From: a virus
Length of the DNA stretch: 64,000 nucleotides
Virus record (IMG/VR): IMGVR_UViG_3300042876_000027
Location: 5,768-69,767 of that record
Strand: one strand, 5' to 3'
Under the pieces are notes generated by a model that worked only from the letters and a program-made list of their open reading frames with translations, was not told the DNA's origin and searched no databases. Position numbers and translations under genes: made by a program. Of this stretch, positions 59,221 through 59,707 are shown in pieces. Position 1 is the stretch's first letter. Every line of letters starts with the position of its first letter.

Positions 59221-59646
59221 ATGGAAAACTTTGAGAACGCAATCATTGACAACACTGTAGCAAGCGAACACCCAGTACTGAAGCAGTTGAAGGACCGCAT
59301 TGCCGAACTTGAGGCGCAGGTTGAGAACAAGAACTCATTGCTTCAGACCGCAACAGAGAACTCTAACCGTCACCGCAATGAGAAGTGGGCATACGAAGAG
59401 CGTGTAAAGACTGTGCTGGTAAAAGCAATGGAAGACCATGACGAGGATACCGTCCGCTACATTGCTGAGCATCTGAACATTCAGTTGACCAAGACCCAGT
59501 CTATTGAGGTCAATGTAACTTTCACCATTGACGTTGAGTACGAAGTTGGTTCGGAGCCAGACCCAGATTGGGACTTTGAGTACAGCGTTTCTCACAGCGA
59601 CATTGTGGACTACACCACGGATGTAGTCTGGAGCAAGACCTCGTAG
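59221..59646 (+). CDS. hypothetical coiled-coil protein
   Basis: SD AAAAGGA; start refined. Confidence 0.7.
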   Translation: MENFENAIIDNTVASEHPVLKQLKDRIAELEAQVENKNSLLQTATENSNRHRNEKWAYEERVKTVLVKAMEDHDEDTVRYIAEHLNIQLTKTQSIEVNVTFTIDVEYEVGSEPDPDWDFEYSVSHSDIVDYTTDVVWSKTS

Positions 59647-59674
59647 GGTTCTTATCCTTTCTTTTCCCCTACGA
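59641..59674 (+). ncRNA. hairpin with anti-Shine-Dalgarno loop
   Basis: TCGTAGGG/CCCTACGA stem; loop TTCTTATCCTTTCTTTTC. Confidence 0.5.
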
Positions 59675-59679
59675 AAAAC

Positions 59680-59707
59680 GACCTGGGCATGTCTACGTAA
59701 ACTGCCT
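59680..59707 (+). ncRNA. H-type pseudoknot motif, copy 1
   Basis: GAC ct GGGCA t GTC tacgtaaac TGCCT. Confidence 0.7.

Follow-up and report, generated by a model that had tools for sequence, protein, structure and literature searches.

Does the hairpin that closes an early gene of an uncultured phage act as an RNA, and is its pyrimidine-rich loop directed at the ribosome-binding sites (RBSs) of other early genes? The DNA analysed, referred to as the window, is taken from an IMG/VR virus record of 69.8 kb, of which it forms the final 64 kb and whose completeness was estimated at 64%. The window has a GC content of ~42% and carries large structural genes on the minus strand up to ~50.7 kb and an array of small genes (the early array) on the plus strand from ~51.9 kb. 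The hairpin, named HP1, consists of an 8-bp stem and an 18-nt loop at 59641–59674, and comparison with related phages shows it to be a clean RNA motif that covaries and is missing from Rfam. Its parts, the gene that it closes and the adjoining linker are the following.

59221–59646, plus strand: upstream early gene, 141 aa, C-terminus ...VVWSKTS, with its TAG stop inside the HP1 stem

59641–59648, plus strand: HP1 5′ arm TCGTAGGG, overlapping the last sense codon and the stop codon

59649–59666, plus strand: HP1 loop TTCTTATCCTTTCTTTTC, 18 nt, 17 of them pyrimidines, complement of AAAGAAAGGATAAG

59667–59674, plus strand: HP1 3′ arm CCCTACGA, with compensatory changes relative to the 5′ arm

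59675–59684, plus strand: conserved linker AAAAACGACC, with high identity among relatives

A preliminary description of this DNA, made from the sequence, had reported an 8-bp stem closing an 18-nt loop, and exactly this structure was found. The interval given there, 59641–59707, does hold the hairpin, but HP1 stops at 59674 and the remainder is occupied by the linker and a second hairpin, HP2. The minimum free energy structure obtained with RNAfold was HP1 with its loop open, and 6/6 folded variants gave the same hairpin with the 18-nt loop unpaired; the single-sequence folding energy is ordinary (z = −1.0; 35/200 shuffles fold as well). The TAG stop codon of the upstream open reading frame (ORF), at 59644–59646, is located inside the 5′ arm, and the loop begins 3 nt past it. 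With an 18-nt loop, AAAAA after the stem and no U-tract, HP1 does not have the make-up of a Rho-independent terminator; the scans returned no terminator-like site on the plus strand at 59641–59900 and no promoter-like site just upstream of HP1. Rfam gave 0 matches in the window at gathering score, 6C included, and at E-values up to 10 only a sub-threshold PhotoRC-I match (14.5 bits) and a long non-coding RNA, nothing relevant; HP1 belongs to no Rfam family. Two further candidates were rejected, namely a pseudoknot pairing the loop with the A-run downstream, which varies (AAACG in contig L004, GAACG in contig L135) and directly follows the stem, and read-through of the TAG codon, where an extra G–C pair in L004 shifts the frame downstream (judged by eye).

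Related loci were collected by protein search (L003 and L004), by a 20-nt linker pattern (nine metagenome contigs), by a pattern based on HP1 (L140) and by a profile of the upstream protein, a search blind to RNA (six viral contigs). HP1 was present in 5/6 of the profile-found viral contigs (G002, G001, the L140 contig, L144 and L146), with 16–18 of the 18 loop bases identical; conservation of the loop in related phages, which the preliminary description had named as a check, was thereby borne out. The hairpin ends 11/12 distinct gene copies examined, including two paralogues on contig L130, and a covariance model built from seven variants located one HP1 copy each in the genomes G000, G001 and G002.

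Across ten aligned variants, 95.2% of 84 pair cells of the stem were paired, as against 37–62% when the 3′ partner was slid, and the covariation score was reached by 0/500 shuffles. Three pairs change on both sides (U–A/C–G; U–A/G–C/G·U; G–C/A–U), a fourth is U–A in seven variants and U·G in three, and one extra G–C pair is found in L004 and L144. Where the 5′ arm differs, the gene's final sense codon is changed (Ser to Ala), and the non-coding 3′ arm carries the compensating substitutions. U·G or G·U pairs occur in 4/10 variants; since these wobble pairs would be C·A mismatches on the other strand, the structure is selected as plus-strand RNA. Seven of the ten sequences in this alignment, which also served for the loop, were found via the neighbouring 20-nt pattern or are close kin. 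Within it, 16/18 loop positions are invariant, and in L146 the loop is identical at 18/18 positions though the protein is only 45% identical. Mean pairwise identity amounts to 94% for the loop, 57–68% for adjacent coding sequence and 48–62% beyond the module, and to 86% for the 11 nt at 59675–59685, which lie outside the search pattern; for these figures, seven of the eight sequences were found via the neighbouring 20-nt pattern or are close kin, so that the conservation of the linker is partly due to construction. Loop conservation is backed by three lineages found by protein alone.

In viral contigs, the pattern TTCTTAWCCTTTCTTT was found at at least 119 loci, unrelated except for a known relative. 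As homologues of HP1 these were rejected, the best stems being AT-rich chance pairings and several loci representing an RBS plus ATG on the other strand. Two of four matches to a 17-mer linker pattern were rejected as well, being chance occurrences inside genes.

Similar loops were seen at two other places in the phage group. At L134:538–581, a hairpin (TGGGGGGTAGGG / loop TATCCTTTCTTTCATTCTTT / CCCTACCCCTCA) lies 10 nt past the stop codon of a homologue of the 51-aa gene that follows HP1 in the window. It has a different, 12-bp stem and belongs to a different gene, and its 12-nt loop core TATCCTTTCTTT is the same as in HP1; no counterpart was found in the window after 60100. The recurrence of TATCCTTTCTTT in a different stem suggests that function resides in the loop sequence. 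A long intergenic hairpin with the apical loop UACCUUUCUU is present on contig G001 at L005:3180–3225, on the minus strand of the locus, and is followed by a T-rich stretch; it provides a third loop in the group resembling an anti-Shine–Dalgarno (anti-SD) sequence.

The RBSs of the early array are of the AAAGAAAGGATAA type, with the form (A)AAGAAAGGATA(A/C), and the reverse complement of the HP1 loop contains the 14-mer AAAGAAAGGATAAG. With ≤2 mismatches allowed, the window contains 6 occurrences of the 14-mer, compared with 0.98 expected (0/100 shuffles reach 6); of the five copies besides the loop, 4/5 are located just upstream of starts (54434, 54978, 55366 and 58715). The RBSs of genes 53609, 55876 and 57553 carry AAGAAAGGATA or AGAAAGGATAA. 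A match of early RBSs to the loop had been proposed in the preliminary description and was confirmed for genes 53609, 54434, 54978, 55366, 55876 and 57553, the numbers given there being the positions of start codons and not of RBSs. Predicted duplexes with three individual sites are listed below.

55350–55363, plus strand: RBS AAAGAAAGGATAAC of gene 55366, best candidate partner, −16.8 kcal/mol, the best plus-strand site in the window

54417–54430, plus strand: RBS TTAGAAAGGATAAG of gene 54434, −15.9 kcal/mol

54963–54976, plus strand: RBS AAAGAAAGGATAAC of gene 54978, −15.4 kcal/mol

Duplexes of the loop with nine early RBSs range from −13 to −17 kcal/mol, 0/300 composition-preserving shuffles of the loop pair as well on 21 early starts, and when plus-strand sites of the whole 64 kb are ranked, RBSs of the array at 53.2–58.7 kb take 10 of the first 15 places. 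The mean duplex energy was −5.8 kcal/mol for 37 late starts versus −11.7 kcal/mol for early starts. Late starts have GGAG-type SDs or the leaderless arrangement TATAAT-N7-ATG and pair poorly with the loop, the GGAG-type SDs differing from the AGAAAGGA type of the early array. The class of early mRNAs to which the preliminary description had referred is thus real in this phage, in that RBS type and duplex energies split early from late starts. What was observed at this locus is a hairpin under selection as RNA, with a near-invariant loop and class-specific complementarity.

Several late genes have TATAAT seven bases ahead of ATG, which indicates leaderless starts; at the minus-strand starts 4203, 36005, 38891 and 44887, TG-N-TATAAT is found seven bases before ATG and no SD is present, and the transcripts of these genes are likely leaderless late mRNAs. 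The RBS of gene 55366 is itself looped out by an AT-rich stem of 7 bp (ATTAGTT/AACTAAT, 55339–55367), whose 3′ arm abuts the ATG, and loop–loop kissing with HP1 is conceivable. Within a minus-strand gene region at 38935–39080, a run of GGGAAGAATGG-like repeats was noticed in the form of high-scoring purine-rich sites in the duplex scan. Regarding host targets, the 18-mer complement of the loop gave at least 120 scattered matches in genome contigs of unrelated phyla and was uninformative; the only Actinobacteria-labelled match among the matches listed is located inside a coding region.

The reading that we favour, if tentatively and with less than even confidence, is that the loop is directed against RBSs and pairs with those of the early type, in cis and/or in trans. 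Located at the very start of an early gene's 3′ untranslated region (3′UTR), HP1 would present its 18-nt single-stranded loop as an anti-SD (anti-RBS) element to the purine-rich AAAGAAAGGA(UAA) RBSs of the early small-gene array, and the resulting duplex would occlude 30S binding and/or be marked for decay. Partners could be the RBS of its own mRNA (in cis), those of other early mRNAs (in trans), or both. With the stop codon placed in the 5′ arm, ribosomes that terminate there would have to melt the stem, and the loop would be presented only when the message is not read to its end; the arrangement thus suggests a gating by terminating ribosomes. That pairing occurs, that it represses, and that it does so in cis or in trans, we infer from the observed features. 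A more ambitious version, in which HP1 is a class-specific anti-RBS riboregulator and the RNA counterpart of T4 RegB, a single termination-gated loop metering or shutting off AAAGAAAGGAUAA-type early mRNAs and sparing GGAG-type and leaderless late genes, is rather improbable; T4 RegA would presumably be a second protein counterpart.

A number of observations weigh against pairing with early RBSs. The early RBSs are copies of one repeated 58-nt promoter–RBS cassette, and their multiple matches to the loop are therefore not independent; moreover, a resemblance to an anti-SD is common to CU-rich loops in general, and loop and RBSs alike are of low complexity. UUAACC is the loop sequence in the L004/G001 lineage, yet the RBSs there have GGC, GGA or GGT, so that no co-variation of seed and target between lineages was found, the U>A change in the loop (UUAUCC to UUAACC) being unmatched by GGTTA RBSs. 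In L005, which has the UUAACC loop, GGTTA and GGATA were each counted in 1/16 RBSs, and in L130 both in 0/7. The share of GGATA RBSs, 3/19 to 6/24 in phages with a UAUCC loop versus 1/16 and 0/7 in those with an AACC loop, reflects a loosened match only and no compensation. Complementarity past AAGAAAGG is lost in the UUAACC lineage; the early RBSs of G001 reach only ~−10 to −12 kcal/mol, and the three top-scoring starts of that genome are located outside the early region. Pairing of the loop with the RBS of its own gene is weaker than with other early RBSs, at −8.5 to −10.0 kcal/mol and 9–13 bp with a mismatch or bulge in nine gene copies. From these results, the invariant loop core is CCUUUCUUU, the complement of AAAGAAAGG. 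HP1 occurs once per genome, and action in trans would need titration of many mRNAs. Finally, contig L145 has the upstream gene and, downstream of it, HP2-like and GC-rich hairpins (1895–1960), and HP1 is absent; as gene and downstream hairpins are kept there, HP1 is dispensable in at least one lineage.

These points also bear on the interpretation put forward in the preliminary description, a trans-acting small RNA (sRNA) derived from the 3′UTR. Its basis, a selected plus-strand hairpin complementary to early RBSs, was upheld, and its weak parts are the narrowed match in the UUAACC lineage and the linkage of the hairpin to one gene; as judged from the sequence, it may still be called plausible. 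Because HP1 is tied to one gene, even in both L130 paralogues, a cis role in the 3′UTR is at least as likely as the trans role.

The start of the upstream ORF is probably ATG 59221 rather than 59167, because 59162–59189 represents a copy of the repeated promoter-like motif, 59221 has a purine-rich RBS ahead of it, and the alignment with relatives begins at that point. Homologues of the protein share 45–83% identity. Pfam gave no significant match for the 141 aa, two matches being below the curated cut-offs, and no annotation was obtained from PHROG, cultured phages or Atlas; the protein atlas placed the protein in unnamed viral clusters only. The AlphaFold2 (AF2) model is of low confidence (predicted local distance difference test, pLDDT, 69; predicted template modelling score, pTM, 0.30) and comprises one long helix, the C-terminus being unmodelled.

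Downstream of HP1, the following features were annotated.

59685–59707, plus strand: HP2, bulged hairpin GGGCA(U)GU-CUACGUAA-ACUGCCU, from the RNAalifold consensus; start of what the preliminary description had called pseudoknot copy 1

60690–60710, plus strand: HP2 paralogue after stop 60664, from sequence

60939–60959, plus strand: HP2 paralogue after stop 60926, from sequence

62138–62158, plus strand: HP2 paralogue after stop 62126, from sequence

59706–59723, plus strand: HP3, GC-rich hairpin with a UUCG tetraloop (CTCCC-TTCG-GGGAG-CGCC), with three copies in the window

59724–59766, plus strand: promoter-upstream DNA module GATCGAT..CGACACGCC..A-run, from repeats

59767–59795, plus strand: promoter-like site P1, TTGACA-17-CATAAT, 11/12 positions matching

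59858–59886, plus strand: promoter-like site P2, TTGACA-17-GATAAT, 11/12 positions matching

HP1, HP2 and the GC-rich UUCG hairpin are read as an RNA module, which is followed by a DNA-level promoter-upstream module and two promoter-like sites. Each HP2 paralogue is located 8–25 nt past a stop codon and has ACCU before it; across nine copies, 63/63 cells are paired and two pairs are compensatory, and HP2 may be a processing or termination signal. The neighbouring pseudoknot of the preliminary description was not upheld, the simple bulged hairpin being fully supported and interleaved helices unsupported. A long-range helix GGCAUGUC/GACACGCC was rejected, as it uses the same 5′ bases as HP2, and thus competes and does not interleave with it, and as 130/500 shuffles were as good; its 3′ strand is located in a motif, GATCxAT..TTTACGACACG..TTTCCCCC, that recurs before promoters without HP2. 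The window copies of HP3 are at 57865, 59706 and 63883, and its stem is only partly kept in relatives. Copies related to the DNA module at 59724–59766 were found at 57295, 57900, 58873 and 61009, without HP1.

Concerning the promoters, a repeated DNA module GATCxAT..(A/T)TTTACGACACG..N..TTTCCCCCAAA was noted upstream of them at 57295–57326, 57900–57931, 58873–58904, 61009–61040 and 62222–62253. The sequences 59746–59795 and 59837–59886 represent tandem near-consensus sigma-70-type promoters, each after the same A-rich block (AAAAAAAGTTTTAAGAAATGCTTGACA, AAAAAAACTTTGAGAAAATGCTTGACA), and the gene after P1 and P2 codes for 51 aa with a weak KOW-like Pfam match. At 53259–62735, most small early genes are preceded by a promoter-like motif, (T/A)AAATGTCNGACCCC-N6-8-TATAAT-like, of which there are more than 15 copies (for example at 55099–55126, 57933–57960, 60151–60178 and 62268–62295), each with a GTC-N-GAC palindrome in its spacer; a TTGACA −35 box is present in only a few (58908, 61044), which hints at a factor or operator peculiar to the phage at the early promoters. 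In an RNA-library run, a 231-nt contig corresponds exactly to 59824–60054, which alone is no proof of transcription, and in one metatranscriptome run, available as contigs only, 59641–59743 was uncovered, which proves nothing either way.

As to the phage and its host, the portal protein is 49% identical to portals of ~131-kb Streptomyces phages, and a GP88-family member among the early proteins shares 54% identity with mycobacteriophage proteins. The relative G001 (107 kb, 99% complete) encodes a WhiB-family protein, a family matched among 14 control genomes in Corynebacterium only, and the majority of DNA runs containing the window stretch are labelled freshwater metagenomes. Together with the leaderless late genes, these findings make a low-GC actinobacterium from fresh water the putative host of the phage. 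No homologues in cultured phages were found by blastn with 59100–60200 or by tblastn with the upstream 141-aa and downstream 51-aa proteins.

Apart from an anti-RBS loop, HP1 might be a protein-recognised module of the transcript 3′ end, with HP1, HP2 and HP3 together defining, stabilising or processing the end of the early transcript, and the RBS complementarity being a by-product of pyrimidine content. The reader might be Rho, loading onto a tract rich in C/U and poor in G, or else ribosomal protein S1, a nuclease of the RNase E type or an RNA-binding protein of the phage. Although doubtful, this alternative is to be taken seriously: HP1 is located at the stop codon, HP2 (four copies) and a GC-rich hairpin come after it, strong promoter-like sites lie farther downstream, HP1 is strictly linked to one gene including both L130 paralogues, and linker and HP2 are conserved in sequence like the loop, which suggests sequence-specific recognition of the whole module. 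The missing co-variation with targets would be expected, and a loop that is invariant across phages with differing RBS sets fits an invariant host or phage protein. However, there is no U-tract terminator, three other HP2 copies lack HP1, which is accordingly not a generic 3′ part, and the order-specific match to the RBS consensus (0/300 shuffles) would have to be coincidence. Nor is there a candidate binding protein, the upstream protein having no recognisable fold in its low-confidence model; a gene for bS21 (Ribosomal_S21), considered also as a partner for a 16S-tail mimic, was not found in G000, G001 or G002. That HP1 mimics the 3′ tail of 16S rRNA, and thereby diverts a factor binding or cutting the anti-SD tail (a MazF-type toxin, say, or a nuclease that matures 16S rRNA) so that ribosomes are protected during infection, is very unlikely. 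The loop has an 8-nt core, already pointed out in the preliminary description, in common with what we take to be the actinobacterial 16S tail, and an actinobacterial host is supported by portal, GP88, WhiB in G001 and leaderless late genes; yet only 8/18 conserved loop bases match the tail, and the equally conserved flanks match the RBS complement. According to the parts of the source considered, MazF-mt11 removes the terminal 11 nt with the anti-SD, and MazF-mt3 and MazF-mt6 cut U^CCUU and UU^CCU, respectively (PMC12274833). The window loop contains UCCUU, but UCCUU is changed to ACCUU in the L004 and L130 lineage, and for these uncultured phages both toxin and host are hypothetical.

Little credence is likewise given to a DNA-level element, be it a cruciform, a polypyrimidine tract that serves replication or primase as a signal, or a site at which a regulator of the downstream promoters binds. 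HP1 is indeed present as a single copy per genome and ~90 nt upstream of two strong promoter-like sites, and the neighbouring motifs GATCxAT and TTTACGACACG behave as DNA sites repeated before promoters; against this, the U·G/G·U pairs in 4/10 variants are tolerated only in plus-strand RNA, and the stem overlaps the stop codon and travels with the gene, different promoters following in L004 and L130b. A functionless relic, either the remnant of an inverted promoter–RBS cassette or a decayed minus-strand gene start, is highly improbable. It would explain why the reverse complement resembles a standard RBS, the same 16-mer in unrelated viral contigs often being an RBS plus ATG on the other strand, and it would agree with L145 lacking the hairpin. 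It is contradicted by a loop with 16/18 invariant positions next to a protein with identities down to 45%, by the compensatory changes in the stem, and by the minus-strand frames past the RBS-like motif, which extend over 0, 6 (L004) and 14 (L135) codons and are not conserved (by eye). The decayed gene start, which the preliminary description had itself named as an alternative that would undo its proposal, is unlikely in view of the C·A mismatches on the minus strand, the short frames and the lack of an ATG in the window.

RNA-level control in actinobacterial phages is almost unexplored. The full-text literature search returned no description of an anti-SD hairpin in a phage 3′UTR, and a term search in a 2025 review of phage-derived sRNAs gave neither 'mycobacteriophage' nor 'Streptomyces' (PMC12197685). 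If the favoured anti-RBS reading is true, the phage would separate early and late translation programmes by RBS type, one of them switched by a single RNA loop; even with another function, HP1 and the repeated HP2 would mark the transcript architecture in abundant uncultured freshwater phages. Among known systems, the RNase III sites of phage T7 are repeated intergenic processing hairpins of early operons. HP2 resembles them in being conserved in sequence, bulged and repeated right after several early genes, but its 7-bp stem is too short for a classical site, and HP1 is single-copy with a large loop.

Phage T4 RegB, as far as the cited text goes, is a protein nuclease that cuts GGAG and shuts off early mRNAs (PMC9409239). 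The likeness to HP1 is a functional analogy only, in that both would be phage-encoded devices whose action is directed at the SD regions of one class of early mRNAs; the proposed effector of HP1 is an RNA loop, and the motif of the class is AAAGAAAGGAUAA and not GGAG. Closer in kind are anti-SD motifs in RNA. According to the excerpt considered, UCCCCUG in the 3′UTR of icaR from Staphylococcus aureus pairs with the SD of its own mRNA, blocks ribosomes and triggers RNase III (PMC3868564). As in icaR, HP1 places in an mRNA 3′UTR a pyrimidine-rich anti-SD motif for which an SD region, in cis or in trans, could be the partner. For HP1, the stop codon is in the stem and the hairpin follows the gene in 11/12 copies. 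The icaR motif, as described there, comprises 7 nt at 260 nt past the stop, whereas HP1 has an 18-nt loop at 3 nt past the stop, which itself lies in the stem. Unlike icaR, HP1 is encoded by a phage (of lytic type) with a putative actinobacterial host, pairs weakly with its own SD and is known here from sequence alone. The sRNA 6C of Actinobacteria binds RBS regions via C-rich loops without a chaperone (PMC6486639, in the parts considered), and RNAIII and RsaE of Firmicutes are sRNAs with UCCC loops, as cited in PMC3868564. In the passages drawn on, seeds rich in C/U are exposed in the hairpin loops of these sRNAs and pair, with no need of Hfq, with RBS regions rich in G/A. HP1 shares with them an unpaired pyrimidine-rich loop on a conserved stem and a complementarity to RBSs beyond chance; it differs in that its loop is U-rich (CCUUUCUUU) and not C-rich, in that it has no membership in Rfam by sequence or structure, and in that they are sRNAs, while HP1 as a separate transcript is only hypothetical. 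HP1 is rated as a variant of the known anti-SD-loop kind.

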